Both the position numbers and the translations under genes were made by a program. A stretch of 64,000 bases of DNA from Raillietiella orientalis (taxonomy: Eukaryota): contig JAYWIR010000017.1 in assembly GCA_036172245.1 (NCBI GenBank), positions 1,364,001 through 1,428,000 on the forward strand, written 5' to 3'. Every line of letters begins with the position of its first letter. Position 1 is the first letter of the stretch. The notes under the pieces are model-generated. The model was not told where the DNA came from and ran no database searches. It was given only the letters and a program-made list of their open reading frames with translations. Shown in pieces: positions 1-40,585 of the stretch.

Positions 1-570
1 TTCAGTTTATTCCAAATCTCCCGCAGGCCATGGTTGCAGAACATCACTTAAAATTTGTTCTCGGAAATCTCAGCCCATGAAATCGCAAGCACGAGACCGA
101 GCTGCGTGGTACGTGAAAGAATTTTTTTTTTTTTTTTTTGCCTGGCAGCGGAAGGTGAGAGAGAGGAAAATAAAAAATGAAATTCTTCCGAGCCGCAAAC
201 TGGAGTGGCTAGAATGTGCGATCCGCAGTGGAGAATAGAAATGGAATGCAAGAAGGCAGATTCCTTGTTTTTTTGAGGTCGGAGGAGGCATCTGGCAAAA
301 ATGCGGATTTATCGCTACGGGGTTCTTCTTGCATGTCTTGGCATTTATTTCAGCTGAAAGCACACAAAAGTGAGGAGCAGGACAAAAACAACCAATCTTA
401 TTTCATAGGAGTGAACTGGTAGAGTTGCTAGCACCACTCCGAGTGGCGAAGGATTGAAAATTCATCGCTGGTGCCGTTGTCGTTTCGGCTTGGAAGAAAG
501 ATGAGCCGCTCATGCTTCCCAGGAAGAATTTTTAAACCCTGATTGATTCTAATAACTGTGTACTCCTATG

Positions 571-833
571 TAACCAAGGAGTTGCACAAGAAGAATACTC
601 CGCCCAGACGACGCACGGCTCCCTGCCCGCAGAGACTCGAGGTCGCCGAGACAAGGGGGGAGCCGCGAACGGCCGAAGGCGACCTCCCTGCCCCTCCCTT
701 TATCTGGGCTGTTTCCGGCGAAGACGGGGGGCGGAGAGAGGGCGCTCCGCGGATAAGGAAGCTGCGCTGACCCCTCTGAGCGCGGCCTCCATCCCGGGAG
801 TAGGAGACGTTCGGAGGGTTTAACCAAGGAGTT
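571..833. repeat. GC-rich ~240 bp insert bounded by a 13-bp direct repeat TAACCAAGGAGTT (TSD-flanked insert or solo-LTR-like)
   Basis: Exact TAACCAAGGAGTT at 571-583 and 821-833 with an abrupt GC rise between them. The minus strand ends ...GGTTACA, like an LTR terminus. Confidence 0.45.
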
Positions 834-899
834 CATTTGCCCAAGAAAAACTTCATCCAGTGCTTGTGTTCCCCATGGCCTCCGAATCAGGAAACAAAA

Positions 900-3800
900 A
901 AGCTTCGAAAATTAGTGGATCTTTTCCCGATTCTTTAGAAAGTTTTTTTTGGTCTTTACGGTCCATTTATGATGAAAGTCATGATTCGACACCATTGTTT
1001 CTTATGTTATACTTGAAATCATAAATTATCTGCGAGAGGAAGCACTTAAATCCAAGAGTGAACCAAATATTACGTTTTGATGGATCCATCAAGCTGAGAC
1101 ACCTCAGTACGGTTCTTTTTCAGTTTTGCCTGGAAATCATTCTTGGATCCAGTAGATACGGACAGCTTTTTCTCTCACAGCCGAGGAGCTCAAATTGGCT
1201 CGCAGCCTTGGTTTTTCGGGAGCCAAAGGTGTATCCTTAAGTGCTCCACGAGTTCATAGCACCAAAGAGTTTTCAGATATAGAAGAATCAAACCCAAGAT
1301 GTGATCGACAAACCAAATCAAGTCACTGCGCAATCTCAGCTGACCTTGCTTAACCTTTCATGTTTAGTGTTAAGGATTCTGTTTCTCTGTTAATGGGCCA
1401 ACTTGTCGTGTGGGTGCTAAATCGATTATTACCTATCGGGGTCAACTCATAGGTCTGAGTTTTCGAAGCCATTTCATGATGGATTTAATTCTTTTGTCGC
1501 AAACAAAACAAAACATGGCGATGGCAAAAAGTTCAATACGGAAGGTCTGCATGTTCCTCGGATATTTTCAGAAGGCCCCCTCAGTTTGAGAGCTTTCGAG
1601 AATCTTCTGCTGCTTTACACCTTTATCCGTCCGATAAATATAATTTAGAGATTTTCCAAAGCATGATTTTCACATAAACTTTAGCTAAAAACTTCCTCTA
1701 GTTTCAATTTTATTTTGATTATGGTTATAAGGCAGTGGGTGGTGAAAGTCATTGCTATAACCATTATGTAACCACGTAGTGACGTATCTTTAGTGGATTT
1801 CTTTCTGTGGTAATACTCGATTCCCTCCATTTCCTTATGTGTTGTTTCGCCATTTCTTCCCTTCCTTATCCACTCTTCCATCCTGTACTTTCATGAAATT
1901 TCAAAAGCAGCAAACAGTTGTGTTTGAAAATTTCGATGCTTTAGGGATTCTTTATCCTACAGAAAGGCTTCGATGATATGAATTGTTCAGGTGTATTCAT
2001 CATCTGCAACGAGTACATCCTGTATTCAGTTTTCATCATCGCTCAAGTTCCCTCCCTGGAATCATTAACACTTTTTTTGATGTGGCCCTCTTATGGGCCT
2101 CACAACCATTTTTTTCCGTTTTACCAACACGGCACATCCCGGTTAGAAATGCTTCTTGTTCTCTTCGCCACCTACTTAAGTATTCTTCACAATGATGAAA
2201 TGCTTTATGCAGATGTTCCATAGGAATCTGTTGATTCCTGATAGCCCCTTATCTAGGAATTCGATACGAATCTCATGCCGTGTCCACGTTCGTTATTTAA
2301 ATTTCGACGGGAATCAGCATAGAGATAAGCGTGTTGTTTTTATCATGAAGACAAAATGACTTTTTGTGATTATTCGTCTGATTTCATTTCAATGAGTAAT
2401 TTCATTGATTATTCAGGAATCATTCTCTTGGTTCATGCATGAAACTTGATGAGAAGCCGTTTGGAATATTAAACTTTCCATTTGTTATTAATGACCACTT
2501 GCAATTAATCACGAAATTTCAATGAAAATATTTTTTTCATTCCAAACTCTTTAAGGAGGGTAATTCTGAAACTGTCGTTTCCTGATTCTGTTGGCACCGC
2601 TTTGGCATGTTTTAAAGCACGTTTTCATGCTGAGAAATGAATTTCATAAAGGCAGGTTTCCATGCATCCAGCAGAAAGAATACAGGTCTTGCACAAGTCC
2701 TCAGGCGAAAAGTTAGCCTCTCGGTCCGACATCTTCACATCAACATACGGTGAAATTGTAAGGCTATCGTGAAGTAAGAGGCATTGCCTCAGAAGTATAG
2801 TAAGAGAGGAAGCTTGATAAAACAGCATTCCTCCATTTGAAAAAAAAAAAACAATCCTGATGCATTTCCTTTTTCAGCGAGTGAAGAGGAGAGAAAACAG
2901 AAAACTCTACCTCTTTTTGTTTGTGCTCACCTTAAAAATTTAAAAAAAAAAGTGGTACTAGGAAGGCATGATTTACGAAGTCCCAAAGAAAACGTGTATT
3001 CCTTATCATCATTAACTTCACTGCTTGATTTGTCGAGTCATTTCTTTTATTATTTTGCTTCTGTCTTGCATCCAAACGGGATTCTTTGAACTATGCATAC
3101 ATGGGAAAGGCAGCATTTCTCAAGACTATTACAATACTCGGAATAGCAGTAAATTTACAAGAAGAGAAAGCAAGCTTTTAGGCGTTCCCATTCCTCCAGA
3201 ATTTTTTTTTATTTAATGGCATGGTTTCGAAAAAGTTCCCATTCTTTGCAGTTCGATACTTCTGAACTGTTTCTTCCTACAGCATGTGGAACTAGTCATA
3301 GGAAGAATGATTTGGACAATAATTTGGCCATTTTATTTTCAACAAGTCTTTTCTACACTTTGATTTCTGGTGTTCAAGAACGTTCGACACAAATACTTTG
3401 CACAGAGTTTCTTGTCTATTTTGTTCAAAACGAGTGAAGTATGCATCTATTCATTTTCTTACATCTGTAGAAAGTGAACTGTTTGCCGCACCACCACTTT
3501 GTAGGTGGTACATTAATGGAAGCTTTGAAGAGGAAGGAAGCTGGCAGTGTTGCTATTCTTTCCCGCTTCCAGTGGATTTTCAGAACGCAATTTTCTTTCC
3601 AAGAAAGACAGCACCATCCAGTGCATGCTGATGAACAAGAGTCCAAACGACATTATCCATTCCTCAAGAGGATCATCCCCAGAACCTTACTTACGTTTAT
3701 GGTAACCATTGGAGGAGGTGAGATTCTTAGCAGCGGCGCTTGCTGGTTTTCTACGAAGGATTCGCACTTCACTGCAAAACTGCTTCTCTTCAAGCATCCA

Positions 3801-5570
3801 CTGCGTATACCATTGGTTAGCAGCATGCGATTCCTTTTGCAGTTCACTTGCAGAGATCTTTTTTCCGAGAAAACAAAAAGGCAGGCTACGTTCTAAAAGA
3901 TGTTAATATTGGCCTATGCAATTTTTCTGAAGCAAGTCTTCATACGAAACGTTTAAGGATACGTAAAGAAGATTGCCAATCGAGAGAAATCGGTTTTGCA
4001 AACCTTCTAGTTATCAGAAGTTAATTTGCTCTTTGCTCTTTTCGAAGCAGATGAATTCACGCATGTTTCGGCCACCAATGCAGCATCAGATTAAACGCAC
4101 AAATACAGAACTCCTGTCTAATGGATTTTGGCGAATTCCATTTACCAGCAGATGTATTCCCGTTGTTCAATGGTCATGCTAAAGGTAATGGAGTGTTTAG
4201 AAATGCGTACTTGGGAAAACAACTTTATGCTAGAGTGAACGTGGCTGTAGATGAATACGGAAACCAAATCATTGCGGAATGTACGAACGAATGCTTCAGT
4301 ACCACAATTTCTTGGACGTTGCTAGTAAGCCACTTCGTTAACGATCGCTGATCGGGAAAACTCCATCCTGAAGAATATGGCATGCACGTTTGTTATCCGA
4401 CCGATTATTCATCTTGTTGTAACCAGTTCTGAAAGAGGATAATAATCAGTATCTACAATAATAATCATTTACAAGTTATCGATTCGTGTTTTTACCCGAC
4501 TCGTGATACGTTGTTTCTATTATCCGTCGTTGTTGCTGTTTCTGTTATCATCTCACTGCATCTCCCATCACGGCAGCTTGGATCAACTAATCAGCACACG
4601 CCCCCCTTCTCGCTGAGAAGAGCGCTTACTGAGAAGCAAAATTTCCTTGTTCTTAAAAAACACATCATCATCATGTAGCCTTTGGAGTTTTAATGAATCA
4701 TCTGATGGCGCTTGGGAAAAAGCTGTTCAACCGTCTAAAATATCTTTTGCAAACAGATGCTCTCTGAGACAGTTCGTTGAAGATTCAGCTTTTGTCGTTT
4801 TGGTATCTTCAAACGATCCTCGACTTTCTAGCCAGCCTCCATTTCTCTCCCTGGTCCCTGTTTGTTGTGCAGTCCAAAGTTATTTGCATCTCACTCGATT
4901 TTCCGGTCAGTTCCGCCCTTGCATTGCGCAATAGTGCAACCTTGTTGCTGGAGTCCTGGGGGTTCCCTTATCTGTGGCATTTCTTCCTTTTCCATCTCCT
5001 GAAACTTTCTCGAGTTTGCTTGTTTGCGCGAACCACACCGCGGTATTGTGAACTTTGCTCCTCCTTTGCAGTACACCAGAAACAATTACATGTTTCTGGA
5101 AACGTCTTTCCTCCTCGAGGTGCGGCTCTCGAGTCCGCAGTGCAACTTTACTTTAAGGGCTCACAGACAAAAACTCCGTCTTGTTCTCTGCAGCCCTCGA
5201 TGTGAAAAGATTTACGCCTTCCTTTCTTGTGGTCAACTGAAATAGAGGTTTCTATCTCTTACGAAGGAGATGCCCCTGTTCTTCAGAACGCTTCAGGAAG
5301 CTTGAAAGAAAGCGTGTTCCTTTGCAAATGTACAAAGGAACATGCTTAGAGCAACATCAGTGGAGCAGACTAAATTGCAGATGCATGACTAGCAGGCAGG
5401 CCTTTCCTTTTGCAAGGGGGCGCGTAACAAATGGACACGTTAAAGAAAGTTTCCTTCTTCCGACACCGCTCCAAACGTAAATCTGATGGCGGTGTCTCCC
5501 AGGTACGGCAGAATCTTTTGAATGTCTTTTTCGTTTCTGGCGTTCAGCATTGCCTACCGCGGCATTCCAT
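900..5570 (-). mobile_element. Highly degraded LINE (Jockey/I-like) remnant: ORF1 zinc knuckle and RT traces
   Basis: Minus-strand motifs in the expected order: VYCKG...YRG knuckle (~5030-5090), then YLYAD (~2312-2326) followed by HLHKAFHHCEEYLSRWR (post-YADD helix). Many stops and frameshifts; boundaries approximate. Confidence 0.4.
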
Positions 5571-5579
5571 CCTACAAAC

Positions 5580-5717
5580 AATTTCAAAGATCGCTCTAAT
5601 GTTTGTCTCTCGTTCATAAGTAAAAAAGGAAAACGTGAAACTAGGAAAAGGAACTTTAAGAACGATGGTAGTGGGTTTCAAGGTCTGCTGAACTTTCTAC
5701 AAAAACATAACGTAGAA
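5580..5717 (+). pseudogene. Fragment resembling a bacterial IS110-family transposase N-terminus
   Basis: Translates (one frameshift at the start) as (IS)KDRSNVCLSFISKKGKRETRKRNFKNDGSGFQGLLNFLQKHNVE. This fits the IS110 DEDD-domain start pattern GIDxSKxxFxVCL...FxNxxxGFxxLLxxL. AT-rich. Confidence 0.5.
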
Positions 5718-5733
5718 ATCTCCTCATCTTTCT

Positions 5734-5857
5734 TATAGCCAATCAGAGAAATGTTTCCCTAAAGGGATAAAAAGGTATAATATGGTATTGAATAATAATA
5801 AATGTAGGAAAATGCCAAGACCATATAGTGAGGATCTCAGAGAACGTGTTTTGAAAG
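5734..5857 (+). mobile_element. IS630-family-like left end and truncated transposase start (MPRPYSEDLRERVLK)
   Basis: Starts TATAGC at a TA; TATAAT at 5776-5781; AGGA at 5806-5809; ATG 5812 giving the IS630 HTH start motif M..YSxDLRERV; interrupted at a TA by the next element. Confidence 0.65.
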
Positions 5858-5944
5858 TATAGCACTTCCCAAAATAAATGATAACGGTATAATATGGAAT
5901 TGATGAAATATGAGGTAAGTAATGGCATACAGTGTAGACTTAAG
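5858..5944 (+). mobile_element. Second IS630-family-like left end (MAYSVDL), inserted at a TA inside the first
   Basis: Starts TATAGC at 5858; shares GGTATAATATGG with the first copy (TATAAT 5888-5893); GAGGT at 5912-5916; ATG 5922 giving MAYSVDL, then truncated. Confidence 0.65.
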
Positions 5945-6257
5945 CATCAGACAGACGGAATCTGTCAAATCAGGAAGAAACACTCGGGTTTAAGTTTTTG
6001 CTAATTTTCAAGTATAGTTATGGGAGGGTTTCTGCAGTTAGCTTACAATGGTGTCATGAATACCCGTACTTGAGCATGGTTTTGGAAGGAACGGTCAAAT
6101 CATTGATGGAGTCTTTGTAGATTACTTCGTTTAGGAGATTGTATTATCAACCCCTCCAAGCCGAAGCGTTCCCCTATTACAAATTCAGTTGCACAGTATT
6201 TCAAGATTTTGGGGCTTCTCAACTTGTACTGACTGCCATGGACGTGTTGAATCTCTT

Positions 6258-6380
6258 TGTGAGGAGCGCCATGCTACCGCAGCCGCGGCGCTCTGTCGTC
6301 TGCGCGGTGCCGTCTCTGCAAGGTACGAGACCAGGAAAGGAGCCATTCTCCTCACAACCTGGTTCCTGCGGATCGCGTCG
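6258..6380 (+). repeat. Short TG...CA element with terminal inverted repeat followed by a PBS-like TGG (LTR-like relic)
   Basis: TGTGAGGAG (6258-6266) and CTCCTCACA (6348-6356) are reverse complements; TGG begins at 6360. Confidence 0.3.
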
Positions 6381-6638
6381 AGGTGGACGCACCTGGACGG
6401 CATAAGGAGGAAGCTCGCTGGCATCCTGCACAGGATGCAGAGGACCCAACGAAGCGGATTGAGATCCCACTCCTTCCTTCCCCTCCCTCATCTCATGCCG
6501 TTGCCTCTTTACTTTGTTTTCGTTTGCTTTTTCATTCTTCCCCATACCCTTCCGTTCCCGTCATGGACCTCGTCAGCACCCCTTCCTGAAAAATTGCCGC
6601 TGATCTCGTCTCACCGTTATCTGCAAGTTTATTTTTTA

Positions 6639-8600
6639 TAAGTGGACGTCCCGGCGTGACCGGGTTAACACTAAACTAAAGCAAATCGCACCAATACGGT
6701 GCCGACATGTTCTCGTCCCATCATTTTATCAAACGAAAACTGCAGGAAATGCACATAAGTCAGAAACTGCGTGGACTACTCCACCCGAAATTAATATTGA
6801 TCCCGGAAATCCTAGCGTTGAGGTTATTGGCAGGAGTGTTCCTCCACAGAGCGATTGCTAACTGCTTTCGTCCCCATTTATGCACTCTTCTTTCTCCAAC
6901 AGACCCACACAGTATCTTTGAGAGGCTTTTTCTGTCGCCATGCTTTACAGGAATCATGCAACTTCCAGCTGCAATTCGAAGCAGTAATCAAGTTATAAAG
7001 ATCTTCGACAAAAAAACGAGTACTCTTTCTGCTGTTATCCTGTGGCTCGCTCACCATGCAGGTATAGGGAGACGAGGCAGATAAAGTCAGAAAACTCCAT
7101 TTTATCGTCCTTAAACCAATACGACCGTATCAGTCATGCCAAATGATTCTGATTTGACTATCCGTAGAAACACCTTCTGCCCTCAATCAAGAGTGAAAAC
7201 AAGTGGGTCTCTTCATCTTCTGACTTGTGGCGTACTATCAAAAGATAAAATCTTGGGATGGTTGGTAAGCTATTTCTTTTATGCATTTCGGTATGAAAGC
7301 CAAATGCTCAATAAAAGTGTTAAACATGGAGTCTACACCGGCAGAATCCTGAACACACCATTGAACTCATCCATTGATTTTGTTGCGCATGACTCATTCT
7401 ATTCTGGAATAAGGTTAGAAGTTTATCTCCACTTCATGCGCCTCCATGATAGGAAACGTTCTTGGTTAAGCAGCGTACGCTTTGGACCGGTGCTATCAGA
7501 ATGCAGTCACGTGACTGCTGCTATAAAAACATTCAATGCGCATTCCTGCATTCCAGTCAATCACTAACCAGAAAGTTCCTTCTTTATGATCATAACCCTT
7601 TTATGGAAATATCCCTCCAGGGACGATTTATTCCTCAGTTTGTACTTCGAGGCAAGGTTCTTTCTCCAGTCGAAACATTGCACGATCCGTGTTCAGTCGA
7701 ATTTTCAGACAAATCAAACGTTCGTTTTCGTGAAACACCTCTGGAGTTAAAGAAGGGTCTCCAGCAAACGGACCTCATGATACGCGTTGCTCTGATCCCA
7801 TGATGCCGGATGGAAACTTCGCCGTCCTGCTGAAGAAGTCTTCCTGCCAAGAATTATTTGTCGGAGGTACATGTTGCATTGGCACACACAGTTTGCTTTC
7901 TCTGGGTAGGAGCAAGTTCACGGTGTTATTTGCATATTTAGTAAACAATTCATGAGATCATCATAGGTTGGATGGTCGATTCTAGCTTGCAACCAAATGG
8001 AAGGCTCAACTATGAGCTCAGATGATGACTAATTGTTTTCCAAGTCTCTCCAATCAACGACGTGAAGTCATTCAGGTGTTGCACAATTTCTAGGGCGGGA
8101 CTCGTAATTCAGCTGACAGCACTCATGCGTAGGAAAAATTCGCTCCAGGTGCTTCAGGTGGTAACAGGCGCTCTGCTTCTTTTCTTTTTCAAGGTCGTGT
8201 TTTCTCTAATACTTTCTCTAATACGTTTCTCTCTAATGCGTTTCTTGTGTATCTTACAAAAGCCATTTGTCTGCAGTGCATATAGGGTTCCAAAGTGGAA
8301 CGAAGAGAAGTAACTGAGCAACCCATAAAGCATTAACCTATGAAAACAGGCTGGCCAAAAGCAACGACAAACCTGGCGGCTTTCACGGCAAAGAGAAGCA
8401 CAGGAAACCACATCTCCAAGTTGCGAGTTTCTATGGAGAACGCTAGTGTTTTGTGGTTTATGGGGATGTGTTTGTAAACGTTTCTTGTGCTGGACCATAC
8501 TTGCCCAACCTATCATGGCTGGGAACAGATTGCTTCTTCGTTTTATCAGAAGTTGTGAGCTGAAAATCGTTTCCCAAGAACGAATGGTGTAATCTTGGAC
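6639..8600 (-). mobile_element. Degraded Helitron (Pif1-like helicase region and 3' terminus)
   Basis: Minus-strand relic motifs in order: YGLL...LQTNG (~8260-8340), Walker-A-like GETWKT (8031-8051), LLLP, IMG..PFAGD (~7755-7810), KQLAIAL..GINI (~6790-6875). Then the hairpin CCCGG/CCGGG (6650-6664), 7 nt and a CTTA end, where CTRR is expected. Confidence 0.45.
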
Positions 8601-9042
8601 TAGAGTTCAAGATGTTCGGCTTCTAAAGGCATTCTGCATGAGAATCTCCTAAATAGAAAGATTCTTAAGTGGGTGGAAGAATAAAATGCTCATTCTCAGA
8701 TTCACCTCTTCCTCCACCCCTAGTACTTCGCTCTCCAAAGAAATGCCTTGCAAACTGGAGACCAATTCCCACACTGTGTAGAAGATGTCTGTCTTGTAGA
8801 CTCTGTGAGTGCTTCACCGACAAGGAGATGAACTGTCTGAAAAACGAAGAGTTCTTACCATTAGATAGAGTCCCGGAGCACAACTTTCTTCCATTTCATT
8901 CCGAACGCTTTCAAGAGAACTAATAGCTTCACGAGGAGACGAAAGCTCTTTTCGCTTACTCAGATGACCTTTTCTGACTCTGTGTACACATGAAAGTGCT
9001 TGAGTTTTGAGTCTGTCTCTCGATCCGCACATAAAGTGGGTC

Positions 9043-9080
9043 CTACGTCACATGCCAGGGAATCCTGGCATGTGACGTAG
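9043..9080. repeat. Perfect 17-bp inverted repeat (hairpin)
   Basis: CTACGTCACATGCCAGG-GAAT-CCTGGCATGTGACGTAG read directly from the sequence. Confidence 0.9.
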
Positions 9081-10949
9081 AGAACTTTCGACGTTCAGAC
9101 CCTGAGCACTCAAAAGATGACCGAAAGAAGGAACAGCCTGCACTTTCGAGTGAACGTCTTTTTTCCCTAAAAACTCCGGACCATGTCTAAACTATGAAAG
9201 CTCGAATCTTGGAGACCTTCGGGAAAGTTTTATGCCTCCTTCGAGTCTTCTGCTTTAACCAGCACAAGACTGGCACATTGCAGGATTTTTGGGCCGAATT
9301 TCTTGAGAGCAATTGAACATTCCCAACGAGATTTTCGGTGAGCTTACAACCACATGTCCCCATCCGTTCTACGAGACCACCCCCTGTTCTTTCAGGGAAT
9401 GCCCCGGTACAGGTACGAATGGAGTTTGATCGATACTGGAGCTACTCTGAAACCTTCGTATGCGTGTGGCTCTGGGTGCGACCCGGCTGACTGAAACCTC
9501 GGCCAGCATGTTATCATCCGGTACCCTCGAGGTCACCTTTTCAGATGCCACCGAATTCCCAGAAGAAGTCCAGGAATCGGCTGCCTGGCCAGCTTTTAAC
9601 TTCGGTAGCTGCCACCGGCCGTTGGGTTTTGGAATTTAAGGTGACCTGCCAATACCACACCACGAGTTCTGAGCGCCATCTCACGATCCTACGATTTGCA
9701 CCCTTTGTGCCTGCCTACCGATGTCTTGGCGTTCATCTGCCCTCCTTGAGGTGTCTTTGGATCATACCATTGGCACCATCGTCCCCCTTGACCGAAGATT
9801 AAGTGCTCCGACACGCTGTTTCGCCACTTCCATCCCTCAGATTCTTCCCATCTCTTCCTCGAAAGTCTCCAGAAACATAAAATGAATTTCGGGACCTGGG
9901 ATTTCATTAAAAAGGAGGGAAAAAAAAAGTCATTCGACGGTCGGATTGATCATGTTTCTATCTTTGAGTTAGAACGGAGCACTTTCCTTTGCATTTCGGA
10001 CCCAAGTGTTTCTCGTTGACGTGAGTTAATGTTGGGAGCCAACCCCCCTGTGAAGAAAGTGTTTAGATGGGGTACATCGTATTGGCAATTGGCTGCTCCT
10101 CGTGACCTCTCTCAGTGAAGAAATCTCCCTTATGCTGGCCATCGAAAAAGGACAGGGGAGACTGCCCGACCGTTTCGAGGCCGCAAGATTCGTCATCCCC
10201 GCAGGACATAGGAGGAGGAGAAGGAGGAGAGAGTTGTGGAGCCTTTTTTCCCCTCCGTGACTGGAGATATCTCCAGAGATCTACCCCGTCTACCCTGAAA
10301 TCAGTTGTGTTGCCTCACGAATCCTGAAGAAGGAAGGAAGAAGAGGGGGGAGGGAAATTGCGTCCTACAAGGTCCGGATGCACCGTGGAACCGTCGCCAC
10401 ATCTCGCGGCTGATGCCGCAACACGTTACTGAATGCCGTGCCTCGGGCGCCAGGTCGCGTTTTTTTTTGCAAGAGAAGAGCATACTCGGATGGGGGAGGG
10501 GTGAAGATGTCACGGCAAGCTGCCGAGCTCTGTCATCCCAGGCAGGTACTCAACGGCGCATCCTGGTAAGCTGCCGCACTTCTCAAGCCCTCCCAGTGAA
10601 CGGAGCCGCAGGAGGATGTTTTCAAGGACCACTCTCAGCAAGAAATCTCCTCGGAACTTTGCCTGCTGCTTCAGACCACGCCTCAATCTGACCGAAGCTC
10701 CTCGATAGCTCTTCGCCGACGCAGAAACCTCCTTCGAGAGACATCCCGACCGCAGGAGGTGAGCGCTCTCTAGCAGATCCTGGAAAAAAGATGATGCTGA
10801 GGGACCATCATCTTCCAACAGGACGGTTAGGCAGCTCAGTTCCGACGAATCAAGTGTGGACTCAGTTCAACACTGGTCCACGCTTGGTTCACAGGTCGCC
10901 CAAGGGTGCGTTGTGTGAACTCTTCAAGTTACAGGGGGTACCCTGGGAA

Positions 10950-11705
10950 GGAAACACCCTATGAATCCAGGAAGGCCCCAGAGAAAGGAATTCGTTCCTC
11001 TCACGCCTAGGAGGGATCCTTGAAGAGGAGCCTTGCCCTGGTTAACTCCTCAATGAGGGGGTGACCCGTAGGAACCACCCTATAAATCCATGAAGGGATC
11101 CGGAGAAGGTAGTCCGTTCCTCTCACGCCTGGGAGGAGTTCCTGAAGGGAATTTCCTTCCTTATTCTTTCCGAAGGGACTCCTGGAGGGGACAGCTTCTT
11201 TGTTTTTTTCCCGGAGGGCACCCACAAGGGATCCACTCCCGGTTTCTTCCTTTGAAGAGAATCCCGAAGGAACGCTCTTCAGTTTTCTCTGAAGGGCACC
11301 TCCTCGAAGGGAACAGCGCGCTTCTTCACACTCTGAAGAGGCATCAACCAACCAGCTCCATGTCACGAGATGTAGAGTCCTTTTCCCCGAGGGAAGAGCG
11401 GAGGAACAGTTCCATTCTCACTATCAGAGGGGAACCCCGAGGCTCCTTGTTTCAAGAAAAACTCCCGGAGAGTCCACTTCCAATCCCAGACCAGGTTAAT
11501 GGGGTCATCCGGAACCATCCGGCTTCCACCAGTGCCGCAGCCGAAGCCTATTATATAGGGCCAACCAGCGTCATCTTGCAGAGTAGACTCGAAACCCGCG
11601 ACACACACCCCGTTCTTGGTATCGATCCTTCCCCGGGAGGGATTCGAACGCGTGGCCCTCGGTGCCACGCGCGCGGAGACAACAGTCACACATGGACGCC
11701 CACGT
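10950..11705 (-). mobile_element. tRNA-derived SINE-like element, copy 1 (with ~120 bp internal tandem duplication of its 3' part)
   Basis: Pol III B-box GTTCGAATCC on minus (11640-11649) and a second B-box-like site at ~11587-11597. Homologous over ~600 bp to 61040-61645 in the opposite orientation. Duplicated unit at ~10956-11030 and ~11077-11150. Confidence 0.65.
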
Positions 11706-13546
11706 GAGCCTAGAACGGGAAGAAGGAAACGGAAGCATCTCTTTGAATGCTGTCAGGTGTGCGCGCATTCTCATGACTCTCGGGTAGAATCAGGCCGGGC
11801 GAAGGAATGCACCCTGCGCCAGCTGCCCCGTGGCCCCATCCCAAATGCCCCACTGCTCTCTGGCGAAGCAGTGGCGGAGAGGCCCTCGTCTCCAACTGCT
11901 AGACCGCTCCCGATCCGAGTCTTGAGTGACGCCTTTCCAGAACGTGTTCCTGATTTCCAGCTCTTCAGCTCTACCCCTGCCCCTGGAGCAGGAGGTCCCG
12001 GCTTGGTAGGAAGGACGCGCTGGACGCGGAGACTGACCGTCTCTGCGTCCAGCACGTGGGCCAGGAAGAGGCGCGGTGCGCGCGAGAGGGAGGCGCGTTT
12101 CAGGATTGCCTTCGGCAGTGACCTCGGCGGAGGTCCGCCGCTTCCGGTCGCTCTCGTTCTTGGCGGCGGACTCGGGGCTGGGAGGAGGCTTGGGCATGGC
12201 AGGAGAGGTCCTGTTCGCTTGGGGGGCAGGAATAGAGGGAAGGAGCTCCCCCCACAAAAAAAAAGGGAAGACGGCGATTCCACGTGCGTCCGGCCTGTGG
12301 GCCCCAGCGCCCGCACATCCTTTTCTGCGAAGCCAAGAGGGCGCTCCACTGCCCCCTCGAGTGATGGCAGCTCACTTGGTGCGGGGCGCAGAGTCGCGGG
12401 AACCAGGAATGTGGGGAAAGGCTCACTGTCGCGTCCGAGCTGGATCCGGAAGTCTTGAGATCCTCGGTTCAGAGAAGCAGGTAGGCGGGTCGGGTCATTC
12501 CTCGTTCGCGCGGGTCGCCTCCTCAGCTTCTCCTCTCTCCGCTCCCTTCTCACGGGAGAGGCCCCTCCGGAACGAGGAGACTCCTGAGTCCGGCCCTATC
12601 AGCCGAAAGTGGGGATCATAGGATGAGGTCAGGGCTCCCGGTCGCTTTGACAACGAGCCGGTGCGCGCGCGCTGCCTCCCCACCCTCTTCTTTCACACCC
12701 TGCAACAGTTGAGCACTTAGGGCTGCTCTGGCCGCCAGCGCTGAGGGAGGGAAAGGGCGAGCGAGCTCGGGCGTCTCCCAGGCAACAGGAAGACCCAGCA
12801 GCTGCCGGTCTCTCTGGAGATCAGCCTCCGTCGCTGCTCCTCCTCCTGGAAACCGTGCGGAGAGACTGAGACACGCAGCTGCTGGATCCTCCCCACGACG
12901 AGTTGGCTTGCCCCTCTGACCGTGCCATCCGGAGAGGCTCCCGGGACGCGTCCTCCGGAGGAGATCCGGAGGAAAGCGGGGAGGGGGGGACAGGAATTCA
13001 TCCCCCACCCGGCCTTCTCACTCCCCTCCAGAAGCAGGCACATCGCCTCTCCCGTTCGCCCGCGCCTCCCCCATGGGCGGCGGGGAGCGTCCGGCTCGGC
13101 TGCCCACGGAAGGACGAGCGGAGGACGTTGCTGTTTCTCTCGCAGTTCGCAGCTTCCCCCCCCTCCCGCCTTATCAGCTGTTAATCGAACCGGATCTGAG
13201 GATGGATCGGCGGTCTCCCCGGAAGTCTCCTTCGACCCTGGGCGCGCTTCTTCCGCACGCCCCGGATCGCTTCCTGCCTCCCGGAGACGGAGCTGCCGGC
13301 ATCCTCGCTCCGGGCGGGGGAGGAGGAAGAGGGAGGGGAGGGGGCGAACGCAGCCATCCTCGATGCACCGAGCGCTCTGCCTGCCAGCGATGCCTGAGGG
13401 AGAAGGCTGGGTTGTGATCGTCGCTCGAACCTGCGGTCTCCAGAGAGAGGAGGGAGGTGAGCGGTGGACCAGGGACCGGGAGAGAGGATGAAGCGACGGT
13501 GGATGAATCGCGTGGGCGGCCAGTCGATCGGCGAGATTCCCTGTCA

Positions 13547-14071
13547 ATGGGCTCCTTGAGGAGATCCCGGAGCGCCTGGCCACCGCCGCAGGGGGGCATC
13601 CATGCAGGAGCCGCGCAGCGAACGGCCCGCCACTCGGAGGCTTCCCGGAGCCCTCGCGACGACTGCGCGGGTGGGTCGCGTCCGGCGGCTGCTCGAGGAT
13701 GCGCGGACAGCGGCGCGCGCGCAGGAGACCCACGAGCGTGGAGCGAGGTGGTGGTGGAGGCTCCTGACCTCCGCCAAACCGCGCGTCCTCTGCTGGAAGC
13801 CGCCCGCGGCGGTGCGCACCCGGCCCGATGCTCGCAGCGTAGCCTTTCCGGCAGTCCCTCAGGCAGGCCGTCGGGCCCGGAGCTACTACACGCCTGGAGC
13901 ATCTCCTGCAACCACCCCACGTGCGCTTACCCCGTATCCCAACCGCCCCTGCGCGCACTGTCCTCCCCTTACGCTCCCCTCCTTCTCCCCCTTCTCCCCA
14001 CAAACAGACGCCCCAGTGGTCCCATGCTGCCCTCGTCGCCGCCGTCGTCTTCTCGCCACTTTCAGCTTCCG
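13547..14071 (+). CDS. Putative first coding exon(s) of a long-isoform AMPK gamma-like gene (MGSLRRSRSAW...RPSGPMLPSSPPSSSRHFQLP); may contain an 87-nt in-frame intron at 13921-14007
   Basis: Open frame from ATG 13547 to a strong donor CCG|GTAAGT at 14071/14072 (phase 0), inside a GC/CpG-rich island. Internal weak GTGCGC donor (13921) and pyrimidine tract + CAG acceptor (14007) keep the frame. Motifs RHSEA, QRSLSGSP, PELLHAW and RPSGPMLP resemble insect SNF4Agamma long N-termini from memory; not verified. Confidence 0.5.
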
Positions 14072-17000
14072 GTAAGTTCGCGCGCGCCCGCGTGAGGGAC
14101 GGGAAGAACCGGGGATTGCAACCGGGAGGCAGCGGGTGCCCACGGAGGGACGCAACCTTCCTCTCGACGGCCGCACTTCCGACCTAGCGCGGCTTCCGGA
14201 AGCGAAGTCGGCCGTGGCGGCAGAAGCGGGCGATGTCCCCCCCCCACCCGGAGCGCGCCTTGAGCCCGAATAGGCAGCGGATGAGGACAAATGGCTAGGG
14301 GGTGGAGGTGGACGTCACTCACGGCAAAGAGCCGGTGCTCCGAGCTTCTTTCTCTCCAGAGAGTGCGGGTGGCCATGGCAACGGTTCGGAGGGTGCGCCG
14401 ACGTGATTGCCAGACTCCGCTCGGGGTTTCTCAACTTCGGAGCGCCCTCGGCCCTGCATGGCACGCGGGGCAGCCGGCCATTCGGAAAGGAAAAAAAAAA
14501 AGAGAAGAAAAAAGGCATGAGGGAAGAGGAAGGAGAGGCATGAGCGCGCGCAGCCTTCCATGGGTGTCCCCTCGAACCTCCCCCAGAGCTCCTTCCCCGC
14601 CCCGCACGGGAGCCTCCGTTCCTTCCGCCCCAAAACCGGAAGTTGCGAAAAACTCGCCGGTTCCTTCCTCCTCTTCCTCCGCGTTTCGTGGCGGCGTCCT
14701 CTCTCTGGAGCGGAGGGCGTTGGCAGGGGCGCGCGAGATCGATTCGCCCGAGGCCCTGGCGAGCGGCGACGACGCGTTCCCGTGGCGATGAGCACTTCAC
14801 GCGCCGAGGGGACCCCCCGCGCTGGGAACGAACGTTTCTTCGGAACGAGAAAGCTAGGCTGACCGCTACCCGTCAGCAGGGTCGGCGTTTCTTCCAGGTT
14901 TTCGCGCTGCGCTTTCCTGGCGGAAGGCAGGGCTGCCACCTCCGATTTCTTTTCCGTTGTCTCGAGTCCTCTTCTAGTCTGTTTTTCTTCTTTATTTTGC
15001 TAAATGCCCTGGGGCAACTGTGGTCTTGCGAACCACAATAGCTCCATGGTTGTCGGAATGTTTGCAGGCAGCCTCTGCCTGTGCATCATCGCTCTGTACA
15101 CGGGCACGTACATGCCGTACGCATCTGCATGTGCATGCGCGAAGCAAAGGTGCGTTGAGAGCATCGAGCAGCACGCGCTCTGCCGCCGCATCCAAGGCCA
15201 GCCGCGCCTACTCCCAAAAGCGAAGGGAGAACCCCGGCGTCCGGGCACGCCGGGGCGTTTTCTGGCTTCCCCCAGGTTGCCATGGTCGTGAGAAACTGGG
15301 TAAGAGAGGGGGGAGCTCTGGGATTGCTTGATGATGAGACCGGTGCAACCGATGGTTTTGCCGATTGAGGGGATTCAAAATCTGTGGGTCGCTCCTCTCG
15401 GCTCCCGTTCCGCAGCCTGGAATTTCCAGATTCCGATGGAGGGGTTTCGGCTCTCAGACAGGCCCCGTGTGGCAATGGAACTCCCTCTGGAGAATCCGAA
15501 GAGCTGGCACCTGGCTGGAACGGATCGCGTCCGTAGTCAGGGTCGAGCTGCACCGAGTGTTTTTCGAAGCTGGAACGCTTCCGGTGAAGATGATGCCTGG
15601 CGCATACGGTCTCTTAGCAACTGCGTGCTCGCTCACCGGATGTTCCGTGCTCCCCGAAAGGAGTTTTCCCGAACCAGAGGGACACAGAAAAGTGTTTTCG
15701 TTCCTAAACTCCCGCTGCACCCTGCTCCCAGAAAACAGGCGAATTTCATCATCCCCCTCCTCTTCCCGTACACTTCCAGAAAGCCTCGCGCAAATTGGTG
15801 CGATTCGGCTCTGACGCCTCTTCTGGTTGCGATGGGGACCGCAGAATCCCTCGGTGCCAAGGCGCGGGTCGCTATCAGCTCGTCTTTGGCCTCCCGTTCC
15901 CGGCGAACAGCTTCGCTGCCGATCCCGCTCTTCGCGGTCCGATGAGCCGGAGAACCCATTCCGGGAGCGCGCTCCGGTTTCTGGCACCGTCTTGCTGTCC
16001 TCGCTCCTCGCCTCACCTGCGATCGGAGAATCTTTGGCAAGCGTCTCTGAGCCGTATGAAGCCGTACATTCCTCTGCTCGCTTCCGTATCTTGGTGCAGC
16101 GGCGACGACGTCAAATCTATGGAGACGCTTCCTGGGTCCCCGGTCTTGCAGCTGGAAAGAGCAGCAAGCACGGACGCCACTCCCTTCCTGGCAGCTGCTC
16201 TAGCCTCCCAGAAAGCGGATGAGTCGGAGAGGGTCTGCTGCTGCAGTGGCTTTCACCGAGTACCCTCTCCTGTTTCCAGCCAGTGCTGAAGGAGGTGACC
16301 GGTCTTGCAAGAATGCGGCCGCGCACGTTTAGCCCCGAGTGACCTCCGGAAGATCGGAACTTCTCCATGCAGGGGGAGGGCGAACTTTGCTCGCCGGGAT
16401 GCAAGACGAGAAGATTCTGAAGCGGAAGAGGCAGACGGGTCGTATGTGTGTGCGTTTTGGAGGGGTAAGGGGAGGGGAAACGCTTAGAACGAGGAGGCAG
16501 CTTCGCTTTGAATTTTCCCCCCTCGCCGACAGAGGACGCTACATTCTTCAGTTGTTAAAGGGAGTAGTCAGTCAGGCAGCTTGCACTCGTAAAGGCCAGG
16601 AGGAATGCCTTTCGGGCACTCGTAGCCGTCGTGAACGAGATCGTTCGCAGCTGTGTCTTGCTTTCGCGACTTCCATCCTGCTCCTCCTGAGGAGTTGCGC
16701 ACTCTCCAGCGTTCTCAGTGCGCATCCTTTGTTGCCTTTGCATGCGTTGCTCCCTACGCTGTGACTCTCAGGTCACGAATCTCGCTAGGGAGAGAGTCGC
16801 TGTGCCACGGTCGCGCACAACTGGGTGGGGGGAGTGGGGGCTCCGAGATTGCTTCATGATGCGACCGATGGTTTTCCTCGAGACTGCAGATTTCCCATTT
16901 TAAGCGTCGACTTCCTATTCCGGTGACGACAGCCGCCGTCTTCCTCCCCGAGCCCTGCCGGATGTTAACAGGCGTGGGGACAAATACACCTGCACGTTCG

Positions 17001-17849
17001 TTTCCATTATTCTCCTCCACCTTCTTCTATTGGTCTTGGATGCGCTAGCTGCCCTCTAGCCATGGTTTTCAGCCAGCATCGACTTCCGGAGTTCAAGCCG
17101 CCACCATCGATCTAATGAATTTCGCTCACTTCGCCCCCTCCGACTCGATTCCGCTCCTTGGGCTCTCTCGCTAAGCGTGTGACTGCCAGGGGGAACTGCA
17201 TCGCCCTATCCTAATTTGAAATTCCGTCTCAGCCGGTACCGTGGTAATGCCAGAAGTTTTGCCTCGTGACGTAGTTGGTTATATGGTGTCTGTGATTCAC
17301 CATAAAAACGAAACAAAGCCTACCATTGTGTTTAGATCGCCATGACGCGTTGTAAAAGGAAAAAAAAAAAAGAGAGAAAATTGCTGTCGTGCAGGCGTTG
17401 CTGTTCTCTGCAGCCTCGTTTTTTTCTTCCCACCTTCTATGTTTCTAAGTTTTCCGATCTGTTCGCCCAAGTCCCGGTGACACTCCCAGCGGAGTCCTGC
17501 ACCTGCGTTTTTTCTTCAATGTGTTTCGGAAGAGTTGCTGCTGCAAGCTTTCTCCTTCCCTGCCCCCTCCTCTTCTAGATTTCACGCTATACTGTTTCAT
17601 CTCGTGTTCTTTCAGTCGTTTCCATTTACCACTTTTTAAATTGCGCATTCCGCTGACAAGGCTCCGTTCTTTGTCGGAGTTCGTCCCTGCCGGGATGTAT
17701 CATCGGAAGAATTAACTTGCTGATGAAGATCTTGGTCCTATTCCTGAAAAGAACTGAATCATCACAGCAGATTACGGAACTGTCTTGAAACAGAATATCT
17801 TCCTGCCGATGCTTCTAAAGTAGCAACTTTACGTAGCGCTGCTGTTCGC

Positions 17850-20025
17850 AAGAGATCGCGTTTTATCGTCTGAAATCGAATGCCTTTTTTTATTCCAGCA
17901 TGTCTTGCAGGCTGCCTTCTGAGAAATTTTCTCTCTTTGCTACAATATCGTCGTCAAGAAAGTGCCGTTTCCTTCGCAGCAGTGATCATTGTTTTCAAAG
18001 ATTGGATGCAACTCTTGTTTACTTTTATCTACCTCGGCTGAAAACATGGCACAAAGATGGGTTGGAGATGAACTCCACAGAGTTTCGACAGCATGGCTGG
18101 GTATTCAAATCATCTCCAGCGAAGATGTGCGCATCTTTTCTTCACGTTCCGTGACACGCTAATGTGGTGTCAAGCGATCGAATGTGTGGCTGGTTTGGCT
18201 TCGGATGCTGTTGTCCACTGGGCTGACCACATGGCTATCCAGTTCTCTATTAGCAATCCACGCTTTAGTGGTGCGATGGTACTTTTCAGCACGCATATGG
18301 GGCTGATCCTCGAACTGCATTCCTTTCCTGATCACAAGGCAACTTTCCGCAACATTACAGGGATTTCTTCCCCTGTTCATAATGATTTACGTAATGGGAA
18401 AGGGTTGGAACGATCTCAGGTTGTACTGTTCTAGCAAAGGATTCGACTTTCCTCTTTTAGGGACAGGCTGTGTTTTGCAGCTGTCTTCGCCTGCGTTCAG
18501 TAACAAGGAAACATAATCTTGTGTAGCCGCATGCCCTTTTCTCATCTAACGTCTTTGACCTTCTCTTTTTAAAGGAAAAGAAGAACTGAAAAGTGACTTC
18601 TCTTTTTGTATGTGAGAGCAGAAGTGCGTGTGTAGAACATGGCGGTCGTTCTCTGAAGATTTCATGTTTTTAAACCTTAACTCGGAACTTCTAGAATTTT
18701 CGAAATATCCCTGAACTTTTGAAATCTTTCCAGAAAGGTTTTTTTTTTTTTGTTTACGCTTTCCCACTGGGGATGTTCTAGTGCAAAGCATTCGGCCAAG
18801 CCTTGCTACAGAAACGGACGGAATTTAGCATCCGATCATCACGGCATCTTTAAGCGAAGTAAGTGAATTCTGAAAGAAATAAACTCCGATGCTCGGAACT
18901 CACTTTCCTGCACCATGATTTTCTGACTGATTCCATCCTCACATTCCAATGGAGGTGTTCTTTCAAGGGCTACATTCCATGAATGTGCACTGAGTGAATG
19001 AGAAACTTCAGCTTGTTCACGAGAGAGGGAGGAAGTTCTCCTTGGAGACAAAGGAGTTATTATTTTCTTTCGAAATTGGGATCAAAGAAGTAACTCCTGC
19101 TTCTTTGATCTCCTTGATGAAGTTCTGGATGACGATGAGCGTGGAACGTTTGTAGGAGTGGAAGAGTGTGTTAAAGTGCTTCATATCGCAGAAGGGAAAT
19201 ACGCATATAAGAATTTTTTTTTCGGTCCAGCTGAAGAATTTAGCCATTTGTAAACGATAATCGAAGCCGCTGCTGTTGAAGGTAGGAACGTATCAACTGT
19301 AAGTGTGCGTATGTGTAAAAAATCACCTATCTGTAGTAAAAATCACCTATTGTGTGTCGCTTATAGGCACAAGCAAGCACACAGCTTGAATATGGTGCGC
19401 ACGAATCGCTGTACACAACTGCTCATAATACGTGTATTTACTGACAGACAAGTCGGAATATTTGCATGGATGAATGAATGCCCGTACTTTAGTACGGTGA
19501 GGCATCGATAGAGATCCATAGGTACACCAGGACACGCGTGAAGCCTTAATGTGAGCACGTACTAAATAGACATTTGCAAGGTGAGGTCGGTTGTCTGGCG
19601 TAACGCGAGCTCCTGGAAGTCATTTCGGGAGGAATGCCCAGTGGAAGTCATCACGAGTTGCTCCTTACTGCTTGGGGTTTGTCTTCTTTCTCTTCTCTTC
19701 CGCAGCATTCTGCTTCCAGTTCGATTAAAGTGAACTCGGTCCTTGCAGCAGAGGATTCGGCCACAAGAAACTGAAGATACTTCTGTGTAGCAGTTGGATC
19801 GCAGAGCGCGCCGTGGTACTTTGTGTTGTGTTTTCGGCTAGGGTCGATAAAAGTAAACAAGATTACAGCTTTTGGCATCAAATCTTGGATAACAAGGATT
19901 GCTGTTGCGAAAGGAAACGGCAATTTTTCGACAACGATGTTGTAGCAAAGAGCGAAAATGTCTCGAAAGGCAAGCTGAAAACTTTTTGGAAAAAAATTAA
20001 ATGCCGAAACGCGATCTCTTGTGAA
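17850..20025. mobile_element. Putative ~2.2 kb DNA transposon with long diverged terminal inverted repeats and an internal Myb/SANT-like ORF relic
   Basis: Arms at ~17850-18125 and ~19735-20025 are reverse complements (CTTGTTTACTTTTATCTACCTCGGCTGAAAACA vs TGTTTTCGGCTAGGGTCGATAAAAGTAAACAAG). The internal minus ORF 19017-19247 (MAKFFSWTEKK..LI...IKEIKEAGV) resembles a Myb/SANT-like domain. Confidence 0.5.
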
Positions 20026-22568: not shown

Positions 22569-23093
22569 GACAGGATGTGTTCTTATTCGGAATTACACAC
22601 GACAGTGCAGAGAAACGAGAACATTGACTCAGAGGGAATTTTTCCCAAGCGCCCGGAGACCAAACACGCTGCTGCAGAAGGCGACTGCAAGCGTCCTTCT
22701 TCTTCCAGCGTGCCATGGGAAGGAGAACTAGGAAGTGATCGGAGTCCTTCCGTCGAGAACGTCAGCGAGCTGCTTGCCAACTTCGGATTCGAGTATCGAA
22801 GCCGCGAAACCAGCAACTTCATGGAAGACATCCTCGAGGAGGAACTGCTCACCACCAGTGACGTGTCCCTCGAATCCAGATTGGACCGCTCGTCGCCGCC
22901 GCCGCCTTCCGCGACCCGCCACCTGCACCCCACGGAGGATGCTTCGATCTCGCCGGCGAAGAGGCACTCCGATGCGAAGAGGGACCCGGGGTTCATCGAC
23001 CCGTCCTTGATCGAGGTGCGACGCCCAAGAACCGAGGTGGTCGTCTCTTCGGAAAGCATCTGGGTCCACCAGTCGTGCTGCTTGGAGATCCCG
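22569..23093 (+). CDS. Putative internal or alternative coding exon (175 codons, DRMCSYSE...FGFEYR...ILEEE...RTEVVVSSESIWVHQSCCLEIP), probably of the same gene
   Basis: Long poly-T + GCAG acceptor ending 22568 and donor CCG|GTAAGG at 23093/23094. 525 nt, phase 0/0, no stops, protein-like acidic and Ser-rich composition. Frame-compatible with the exons at 14071 and 53174. Confidence 0.55.
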
Positions 23094-23699
23094 GTAAGGT
23101 TTGGAACTTTCCCGTGTTGGTCCTCCGTCGCATCCTCGGCCGACCTGACCTGCCTCCAAACGCGTACCGATGGGAAGAGGTCACTCCACTGGTCCTTGTT
23201 GAAATTTCCATCTCGGGGGAAGAATTTCCAGGCTCGGCAATCCTCTGAAATGATTTTTTTTTTTGTGGTTTCGCGACTGGGAGGCTGCGAGCGCCGCGTC
23301 TCGCGAGGCTCTTGGAAGCCTACACTCGTGGTCCGCCACCGCGTGTTTGCCCTTTGACCTCTTGACGGGAAAGCCCGGTGCTCCCCACCACCGCCGTGTT
23401 TCGGCGCCCTCCGGAACCACTTCGGCAGCTTCCCGTGGGCACAGCTCTTTCCGTGCGGACGTGCACTTATCTCTCCGCGTCTTGCCAGCGTCTCGCGAAT
23501 CCAAGCTGGGGGAAGGGGGAGGGACGAAGGTGCAGATCACCTTTCGATGGTCTGCCGGCTGAATCCAGCCGGGCTCCGTAGGGACGCATGGCGCTCGCCT
23601 GTGGTACTCCGAAGGAAATGCTGCTGCCTTGTGGGACTTAGCAGTAGGGCGCGAACCCGGAGCTGCGCGGAATCCCACAAGGGGAAGGAGAGGGGGTGG

Positions 23700-29404: not shown

Positions 29405-29443
<39 letters not shown>
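29405..29443. repeat. (CT)n microsatellite followed by a C run
   Basis: Direct reading of the sequence. Confidence 0.95.
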
Positions 29444-29446
<3 letters not shown>

Positions 29447-39044: not shown

Positions 39045-40585
39045 TAAGCATCTTGTAGGTGCAGCAGTACGAGCGCCTCCTTTTCGGATGGTCGAGGTCG
39101 CCTCTGCTTTGCCTACTCGCTGTTCCCATTGATTTGTTGGTCTCTTCCGAAACTTTTCCCGTGAACGGTCTCCTGGCAAGCTTGCTCTGTCGCTCCTACA
39201 GGTATCGAAAAAGCTTTCTCGCGATCTTTCTCCTTCGTGTTTCTTAACACGGCCCACTCGTCCCTGGGCCAGTCACCAACTCGTGCGTTGCTTCCGCCAG
39301 TTCGGCTCAGGTCGGGTCCTGTCGCTGCGTTCCTCATGGGGGGAGCAGAGTGGTCCGCCAAGTTTGGCAGAACAAGGAACCCGTGTGGAAAGCCAACGAT
39401 CCTTTGTCCGAAGAGTCCTCCGGCAGCCTCTGCTTTGAAGTTAGGGAAATCACGAAGAAGCGCAAAGATCGAAAAGTGTCTGTTGCCAAGATACTCTTGG
39501 AGAGCGCGGGGTGATTCCGGAGTTCCCCCACGGTTTCATTGCCTAACAGAAACGATATGAAATTCATGATGAAGACCACGCTGCGGAAGCGGTTCGTATC
39601 GTTGCCTAGGTGAGGCGGAACACGAAGTTGGATCAAGTTTGTCAGCTGCTTCTCATTTCTGTCGGCTTTTCATTTTATTTTATTTTTCTGTTTCGAGGGA
39701 GTCCCATTGCTTTGTTACAGAAATTTTCTCTATCGATAAGTTCGCGGTTAGATGCACTGGGACATGCAGTATTTTGCTGCTTCCAAACTTTGGAGCGACC
39801 GCTCTGGCTTCAAGATTTTCATCTTTCAGTTTCCTTGGCTGCAGGTATCTTCGCGTCCGCAGGTCCTTTTTTTCCCCTGGCATCACCAACTTGAGCACTT
39901 TCCAGAATAAAAAATCGCTCAGAATCCCAGTTTTCAACCCTGCCGCGTTTTCTTTCTTCTTTATTCCCTTTTTTCCTCATTTGATGGAAAGCATTTTGGA
40001 CGCGTTCTTGCTTGCAGCAAACGACTCGGACCGTTTTGTATCCATAGTGAATTCCTGTCTTATGAATTTTCCATCTTTTCACTCCTCTCTCTTCCCAGGC
40101 TGCCGAGAGAAATGATTTATTCGTTGTCTCTTCTCTTTTGGATGCTTCCCCAACCATTCGCTCTGCATTTTCCTTTTTTATAAATCAATTTTTCCGAAAC
40201 TCTCAGGGCTTCCCAGAGTGGAATTTCTTTCTGAAATCCAGAAACCGTCAACTCAGAGGCAGAAGACACCCTCACCCTGAACGGAAAGACGTCCCAGCGC
40301 TTTGTTAGTTGGACCGGTGCGAGACTTTTGACTTACGGTGGCATCTCAGATAGAGATCTCATGCTTCCGGTTGACTTTCTATGGATGCCTCCGTTCCTTA
40401 CTTCTTGTAGATGCAGCAGTACGAACTCCTCCTTTTCGGATGGTCGAGGTTGCCTCTGCTTTGTCTACTGGCTGTTCCCATTGATTTGTTGGTCTCTTCC
40501 GAAACTTTTTCCAATAGTAGTCTTCTAGCTGGCTTATTTTGCCGCTCCTTCAGCTATCGAAAAAAGCTTTCTCGCGATCTTCCAG
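39045..40585 (-). repeat. ~190-bp direct repeat pair (39045-39235 and 40400-40585), probably a duplicated gag-end segment
   Basis: Both copies contain CTCCTTTTCGGATGGTCGAGGT...GCTGTTCCCATTGATTTGTTGGTCTCTTCCGAAACTTTT. The minus frame reads RRRSYCCTYK..PWHSC (CCHC-like). Confidence 0.75.

Follow-up and report, generated by a model that had tools for sequence, protein, structure and literature searches.

A probable fossil of Wolbachia-lineage insertion sequences in eukaryote-like DNA

How does a patch that carries bacterial-looking promoters and start sites come to lie in DNA that otherwise looks eukaryotic, and does it do anything there? An earlier note on the window (the whole stretch of DNA analysed, 64,000 nucleotides) had proposed that positions 5580..6180 were endosymbiont DNA made of IS110 and IS630 fragments. 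We located all the sequence features listed in that note, namely an IS110-like peptide and two TATAG units with their boxes and ATG codons, at the places it had given, and the bacterial patch proved to be real. Its limits, however, had to be moved to 5581-6185, and the final ~245 bases turned out to be a fourth insertion-sequence (IS) fragment that had not been recognised. The resulting island (Table 1) has a GC content of 36% compared to 51% for the 64-kb window, with values of 29-41% per 100-base step within it and of 42-63% beside it. Considering the evidence presented below, we think it likely that the island is a non-functional fossil of a Wolbachia-lineage bacterium, a lateral transfer of the 'nuwt' type lying in non-bacterial, eukaryote-like DNA, whose mosaic structure was pre-formed in the donor.

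Table 1. Features of the island and its borders; assignments are by homology.
Feature	Positions	Strand	Size or GC	Description
Left flank	5400-5580		44-50% GC	Non-Wolbachia; no match in 60 Wolbachia-genus genomes; unique in window
AT-rich bacterial island	5581-6185		605 bases	Four same-strand IS fragments: A, B, C and D
Piece A	5581-5717	+		Internal fragment (codons ~12-59) of an ISWen2-like IS110-family transposase gene; both ends cut
Spacer between A and B	5718-5733		16 nt	No Wolbachia match
Piece B	5734-5859	+		TA, IS630-type left end, GGTATAATATGG, AGGA, ATG 5812, 16 codons; cut at TA where C begins
Piece C	5858-5944	+		TA, second IS630-type left end, GGTATAATATGG, GAGGT, ATG 5922, 7 codons; cut where D begins
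Piece D	5942-6185	+		Leader (5' non-coding left end) of a further IS110-family element, reaching from the left terminus to ~25 nt before the transposase ATG
Right flank	6186-6500		54-63% GC	Non-Wolbachia; no match in 60 Wolbachia-genus genomes; unique in window

Wolbachia origin of the island

BLAST of positions 5540-6200 against 60 genomes of the GTDB genus Wolbachia, a comparison that the earlier note had recommended, gave matches in 43 of them, with E-values down to 7.7e-62. The matches of pieces A, B, C and D tiled the whole island, those of C starting at 5855 or 5858 and those of D at 5937 or 5942, except for the 16-nt spacer between A and B, and the sole match touching this spacer was a 37-nt plasmid match (E=0.05) that reached 5722. 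When positions 1-20000 of the window were compared with the 60 Wolbachia-genus genomes (five candidates scored per genome), all the matches listed fell inside the island, and positions 20001-64000 matched none of five IS-rich genomes. A sample of 400 genomes from the order Rickettsiales, with two candidates scored per genome, contained 18 matching genomes; 15 of these were members of the 60-genome Wolbachia set and the other three presented short matches only, of at most 82 bits. Searching a plasmid collection by blastn yielded only weak matches, to Rickettsia plasmids (79% over 53 nt) and to the Wolbachia plasmid pWALBA2 (89% over 37 nt), both with an E-value of 0.05. The earlier note had named a lack of bacterial matches as an argument against its own reading, and we obtained Wolbachia matches at both the protein and the DNA level. 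On these homology grounds, we regard the derivation of the island from a Wolbachia-lineage bacterium as established, which bears out the proposal of endosymbiont DNA and points to its donor.

Identity of the four fragments

The family names used here rest on full-length Wolbachia homologues of the pieces and not on the peptides of the window itself. When five short peptides from the window were compared with Pfam, four had no family and the remaining match was noise (DUF5551, E 0.14). Similarly, no Rfam family was found in the window at gathering scores, or in positions 5500-6300 at E-values up to 1.

The IS110-like peptide of piece A is read from an open frame on the + strand (5586-5717). Homology begins at 5581, with one nucleotide (A) missing from an A-run at this left edge, and ends at 5717. 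We searched a 53-aa translation of positions 5577-5735 against 5.8 billion proteins, considering longer proteins only, and obtained 65 matches among 80 candidates, with a best E-value of 5.5e-17; they covered 81-89% of the query at 72-91% amino acid identity. Almost all the named matches were Wolbachia transposases of the IS110/ISWen2 family; two matches were listed under insect host names and one was labelled Rickettsiales. The best Wolbachia IS110 transposases reached 84-91% amino acid identity, which places piece A with the Wolbachia ISWen2 group of IS110 described by Cerveau et al. (2011; PMC3205602). At the DNA level, piece A was 93% identical to L056/L078 (best genomes G003 and G057) and 84-92% identical to many other Wolbachia-genus copies. 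A full-length homologue (P0003) presented both IS110 domains, PF01548 (DEDD) and PF02371 (Transposase_20), and its relatives in GTDB species genomes were overwhelmingly from Wolbachia, with more distant ones (39-52% amino acid identity) in Caedibacter, Orientia and others. Nothing useful was returned by tblastn of the IS110-like peptide against the plasmid collection.

The two units that follow begin with TATAG(C), at 5734-5739 and 5858-5863. The 12-mer GGTATAATATGG occurs exactly twice in the 64 kb, at 5774 and 5886 (chance expectation 0.01; two matches in none of 100 shuffles), and a 21-nt block around TATAAT forms a direct repeat of 90%. The ATG at 5812 opens MPRPYSEDLRERVLKV, followed by a stop, and the ATG at 5922 opens MAYSVDL. 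From TATAG on, piece B showed 71-79% nucleotide identity to the Wolbachia-genus copies L101-L104 (best genomes G001, G056 and G005); in the L102 copy, the 16 residues are the same as in B and a DDE_3 remnant lies downstream (B-type DDE_3 2.8e-7). This homology begins at TA-TAG (5734) for two Wolbachia copy types whose upstream DNA differs. Piece C was 94% identical to L100 (best genome G055), 92% to L105 and 87% to L106, three copies with unrelated left flanks in which homology to C begins at the same TATAG. The C-type ORF of L105 carries HTH_Tnp_IS630 (3e-13) together with DDE_3. In addition, C begins right after the TA of B's reading frame and B also begins after a TA, the dinucleotide targeted by IS630 elements.

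Judged by homology, each unit is the left end of an IS630-type element, and the two elements are related. Their termini were placed from homology boundaries only, and a search of two Wolbachia C-type copies for terminal inverted repeats found none. The right ends, where a TA duplication would show, are absent from the window. The HTH_Tnp_IS630 and DDE_3 domains that would make B and C members of IS630 are missing from the window, which retains only 16 and 7 codons, respectively. The match of B and C to Wolbachia IS630-type left ends likens them, at the family level only, to the ISWpi10 and ISWpi11 groups covered in the same Wolbachia survey (PMC3205602). All the Wolbachia copies of B and C that we examined were themselves frameshifted. 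The B-type remnants L101, L103 and L104, from three Wolbachia-genus genomes, share ~40 nt upstream of TATAG while the upstream DNA of L102 differs, and the B-type element may lie inside a larger repeat in the first three. A further observation concerns a Rickettsia endosymbiont plasmid (AP029036.1; L001:2001-2053), in which an IS630-type gene annotated as hypothetical has the stretch from the Shine-Dalgarno site to codon 14 in common with B (79% over 53 nt); this resemblance suggests that related IS630 elements occur in Rickettsia plasmids and Wolbachia.

Piece D, the fragment that had been overlooked, belongs with a Wolbachia repeat present in several copies (at least nine in the genome G017), to which it is 74-81% identical. 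Downstream of the leader, the copy L076, which is frameshifted, has ORFs carrying Transposase_20 (9.6e-10) and, short of the 29-bit cutoff, DEDD_Tnp_IS110 (25.3 bits). Eight Wolbachia D copies with unrelated left flanks started aligning at the same base (5942) and the homology of all the D copies ended at 6185. The complete DEDD plus Transposase_20 recombinase that characterises IS110 is found neither in A, which is limited to codons ~12-59, nor in D, which lacks any gene; by homology, both pieces are derived from IS110-family members and are not elements themselves. We also considered a site-specific insertion of D into C, as one alignment, to genome G020, reached 5921. This was rejected, the extra 20 nt being a chance resemblance and the left flanks of the D copies being unrelated.

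Most IS110-group elements encode a bridge RNA in their left non-coding end, according to Durrant et al. (2024; PMC11208160), and D resembles such an end in being long, conserved and placed directly upstream of a DEDD/Transposase_20 gene. The alignment of the Wolbachia leader (L076:1499-1772, 11 other Wolbachia-genus loci and the window copy, 13 sequences in total) spans ~270 nt with 82% mean column identity. Its consensus fold has 57 predicted pairs; a long-range helix among them shows some compensatory changes, and double changes occurred in only 3 of the 57 pairs among 12 Wolbachia variants. D differs from a bridge-RNA end in its weak covariation, in the broken hairpin and missing recombinase of the window copy and in the lack of an Rfam family, since a search with the Wolbachia leader returned only a chance snoRNA match (E 0.36). 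We therefore propose the D-type leader of Wolbachia as a candidate bridge RNA, which should be taken as a lead.

Formation of the mosaic

Each of pieces B, C and D starts at the very point from which independent Wolbachia copies, differing in their flanks, become homologous to one another. As nested transposition needs active transposases, the mosaic was most likely built in a bacterium, and the boundaries of the pieces suggest the order of events. An IS630-type element (B) would have landed beside an IS110 gene (A) that was already truncated; the transposase gene of B would then have received a second IS630-type element (C), at a TA in its codon 17, and that of C an IS110-family element (D), in codon 8. 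A piece of ~605 bp of this IS-dense locus, broken inside A on the left and inside the leader of D on the right, would later have entered a host chromosome, presumably when a double-strand break in the germ line was repaired by end joining, and would have decayed neutrally since the transfer. Nested transposition in the donor followed by the transfer of one ~600-bp piece is thus the most likely course of events, in a donor arrangement that we infer. The same kind of locus is found in living Wolbachia: the genome survey counted 52-171 IS copies per genome, of which 71% were non-functional, and reported 18 nested insertions across four genomes; IS110 and IS630 were among the families present (PMC3205602). 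The pieces of the window differ from those Wolbachia elements in being fragments of 87-245 bases located outside a bacterial genome. If the proposed order is correct, the island offers a clean, small example of an IS-dense bacterial locus whose three nested insertions were frozen on landing in a host chromosome.

The B|C and C|D junctions were searched for in the 60 Wolbachia-genus genomes at up to 3 mismatches, and as degenerate exact patterns in metagenome_contigs and viral_contigs, and neither was found. Since no collection contained them, formation in the donor is a deduction. Their absence from all 60 genomes could also mean that the mosaic was made in the host, either by successive insertion of separate Wolbachia fragments or by rearrangement after the transfer, and the A/B boundary, which is not an IS terminus of A and holds the unexplained 16-nt spacer, would agree with this. 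However, IS insertion sites are strain-specific, so that the absence of a junction from species representatives carries little weight. Moreover, the four pieces share one orientation and only A does not start precisely at an IS left terminus, an outcome that random breakage and joining would hardly ever produce, and C sits at a TA of B. We consider assembly of the mosaic in the host to be improbable. The transfer of a single fragment already pieced together in the donor explains everything except the 16-nt spacer. A quite different origin for the two units, also raised in the earlier note, is a eukaryotic transposon of the Tc1/mariner type, native to the host and with an N-terminus resembling IS630. 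The YSxDLR-type motif is indeed common to the IS630-Tc1-mariner superfamily, and the 16-aa IS630-like peptide on its own gave no significant match by tblastn against the plasmid collection (E of at least 1). Against this, the DNA homology to Wolbachia copies (76-94%) extends beyond the motif, from the non-coding left ends into the first codons, the units sit between two IS110 fragments of Wolbachia type, and no other copy exists within the 64-kb window. With Wolbachia copies as the closest relatives, non-coding ends included, we give the Tc1/mariner origin practically no credence.

Decay of the island and its probable integration into host DNA

The earlier note had judged the signals of the patch to be better preserved than their surroundings. 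We could attach no functional meaning to this preservation, since TATAAT and the Shine-Dalgarno motifs belong to conserved left ends of IS630-type elements and thus provide no evidence of activity in the host, and the window copy carries private damaging changes. Piece A presents three substitutions that are absent from 24 distinct Wolbachia variants; each is non-synonymous and affects a conserved position of the Wolbachia consensus (F to S, D to N and D to G). Of 136 columns found to be invariant in the set of 12 Wolbachia variants, 11 are altered in piece D; the corresponding figure is 0-5 in 11 of the variants and 15 in the remaining, divergent one. In addition, an 8-nt deletion in D removes one arm of a predicted hairpin, so that 49 of the 57 predicted pairs are kept, compared to 53-57 in the Wolbachia variants. 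On these small numbers, the pattern of private changes appears to be that of relaxed constraint. Four pieces arriving together would have undergone equal decay after the transfer, for which the 6-7% divergence of A and C sets an upper limit; given this limit, the lower identity of B and D (79-81%) would mostly reflect IS variants that are absent from the species genomes.

The longest in-frame bacterial stretches in the island run for 46, 16 and 7 codons before a stop or a junction interrupts them, and no complete gene, catalytic domain, right end or recombinase is present. As judged from this content, a patch with no complete transposase, right ends or recombinase can neither move nor encode anything. 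To our knowledge, bacterial signals do not act in the nucleus. Promoter-like sites numbered 4 in the island, compared to 1.5 +/- 1.7 in shuffled sequences, which argues against a function in the host, even though one good sigma-70-like site (10/12) lies in unit C. As some nuclear Wolbachia transfers are transcribed, according to the Brugia malayi account (PMC3849323), we weighed whether the patch could be a domesticated or expressed fragment or a still-mobile element; with such short frames and no catalytic domain, right end or recombinase, this appears highly implausible. The case illustrates that promoters and start sites of bacterial appearance may be no more than inert fossils when they turn up in a eukaryotic assembly.

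The island is contiguous with the rest of the window, with no N and with non-Wolbachia DNA on both sides (at least 5.5 kb before it and 58 kb after it). From this contiguity, we judge a real insertion into a host chromosome to be probable. The alternative is an assembly artefact in which reads or contigs of live Wolbachia, or of a contaminant, were mis-stitched into a host contig. Hosts with live Wolbachia yield mixed read sets, and the two host-labelled proteins among the IS110 matches show that such sequences enter host assemblies. A search of public sequencing runs listed one that contained part of the sequence (6% of the sampled words) and no RNA run; its coverage reached neither junction, being confined to 6809-7084 (two 151-nt contigs) and to two scraps of 18-19 nt near 4750-4850. 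An artefact would, however, require two false joins 605 bases apart in an otherwise continuous contig without N. Furthermore, a live genome is not expected to supply a piece cut inside elements at both ends and bearing private damaging changes, an argument tempered by the degraded IS copies that also exist in live Wolbachia (PMC3205602). On balance, an artefact seems unlikely. Patches of this kind should not be discarded as contamination before their junctions have been checked.

A genuine insertion of the island has well-described counterparts. At least 115 kb of Wolbachia DNA have been transferred in Brugia malayi (PMC3849323), and nearly 1 Mb of short, disabled Wolbachia fragments are reported as co-assembled with nematode DNA in Dictyocaulus viviparus (PMC4046930). 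The island resembles these nuwts, or Wolbachia fossils, in being a short, disabled Wolbachia fragment co-assembled with non-bacterial DNA and with no evident function. It differs from them in consisting of IS debris only (four fragments and no housekeeping gene) and in being joined to its flanks by the assembly alone. Nuclear Wolbachia transfer is thus a known phenomenon in many arthropods and nematodes, and the island matches this class by its origin, its size and its decay. It would also share its presumed mechanism with NUMTs and NUPTs, fragments of organelle DNA that are captured in nuclear genomes during double-strand-break repair and then decay neutrally; its donor differs in being a facultative bacterial symbiont and not an organelle. 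The island would mark present or past contact of the host lineage with a Wolbachia-type symbiont.

Regarding the surroundings of the island, their earlier description as eukaryotic TE debris found no support in our analysis: none of the 288 flank ORFs of at least 90 aa (150 and 138) had a credible Pfam domain, the best being DUF4668 with 16.8 bits, under its cutoff of 27. By its low coding density and composition, the DNA of the window looks eukaryotic and non-vertebrate; CpG is nowhere depleted (o/e 0.94 overall, 0.64-1.37 along the window), TpA is strongly depleted and GC ranges from 38 to 70%. The genomes of most known Wolbachia hosts are AT-rich, and the window, with its 51% GC and islands of 65-70%, would look unusual among them. 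This composition, the lack of any recognisable protein domain in the 64 kb and a candidate exon that has no homologue (see below) raise the question of whether the flanking DNA belongs to a host beyond the usual arthropod and nematode range of Wolbachia, such as a protist or a different parasite that inhabits Wolbachia-infected animals. We regard such a host as quite unlikely; if it were real, the island would testify to a bacterium-to-eukaryote transfer between unexpected partners or to a symbiosis since lost. The general interest of the locus is modest unless the host proves to be unusual.

Several minor features of the flanks were noted. The ORF at 22575-23354 (+) has the strongest 3-base periodicity of the window, with a third-position GC of 0.68 compared to 0.50-0.53; no homologue was found among proteins of 456-2000 aa or among 1.84 billion representative proteins, and it may be a lineage-specific host exon. 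Islands of 63-70% GC at 12000-16000, 51000-54000 and 61000-63000 contain stop-free frames on both strands of up to 582 aa, without a Pfam domain. Three repeat pairs occur within the window, namely 11071-11609 and 61133-61640 (inverted, 72% over 552 nt), 39051-39236 and 40403-40589 (direct, 86% over 187 nt), and 17888-18056 and 19819-19996 (inverted, 75% over 179 nt, ~1.8 kb apart), which may be host repeats or ends of non-autonomous transposons. Finally, a perfect (TC)20 microsatellite lies at 29405-29444 and an A-rich tract of 48 nt at 37698-37745.
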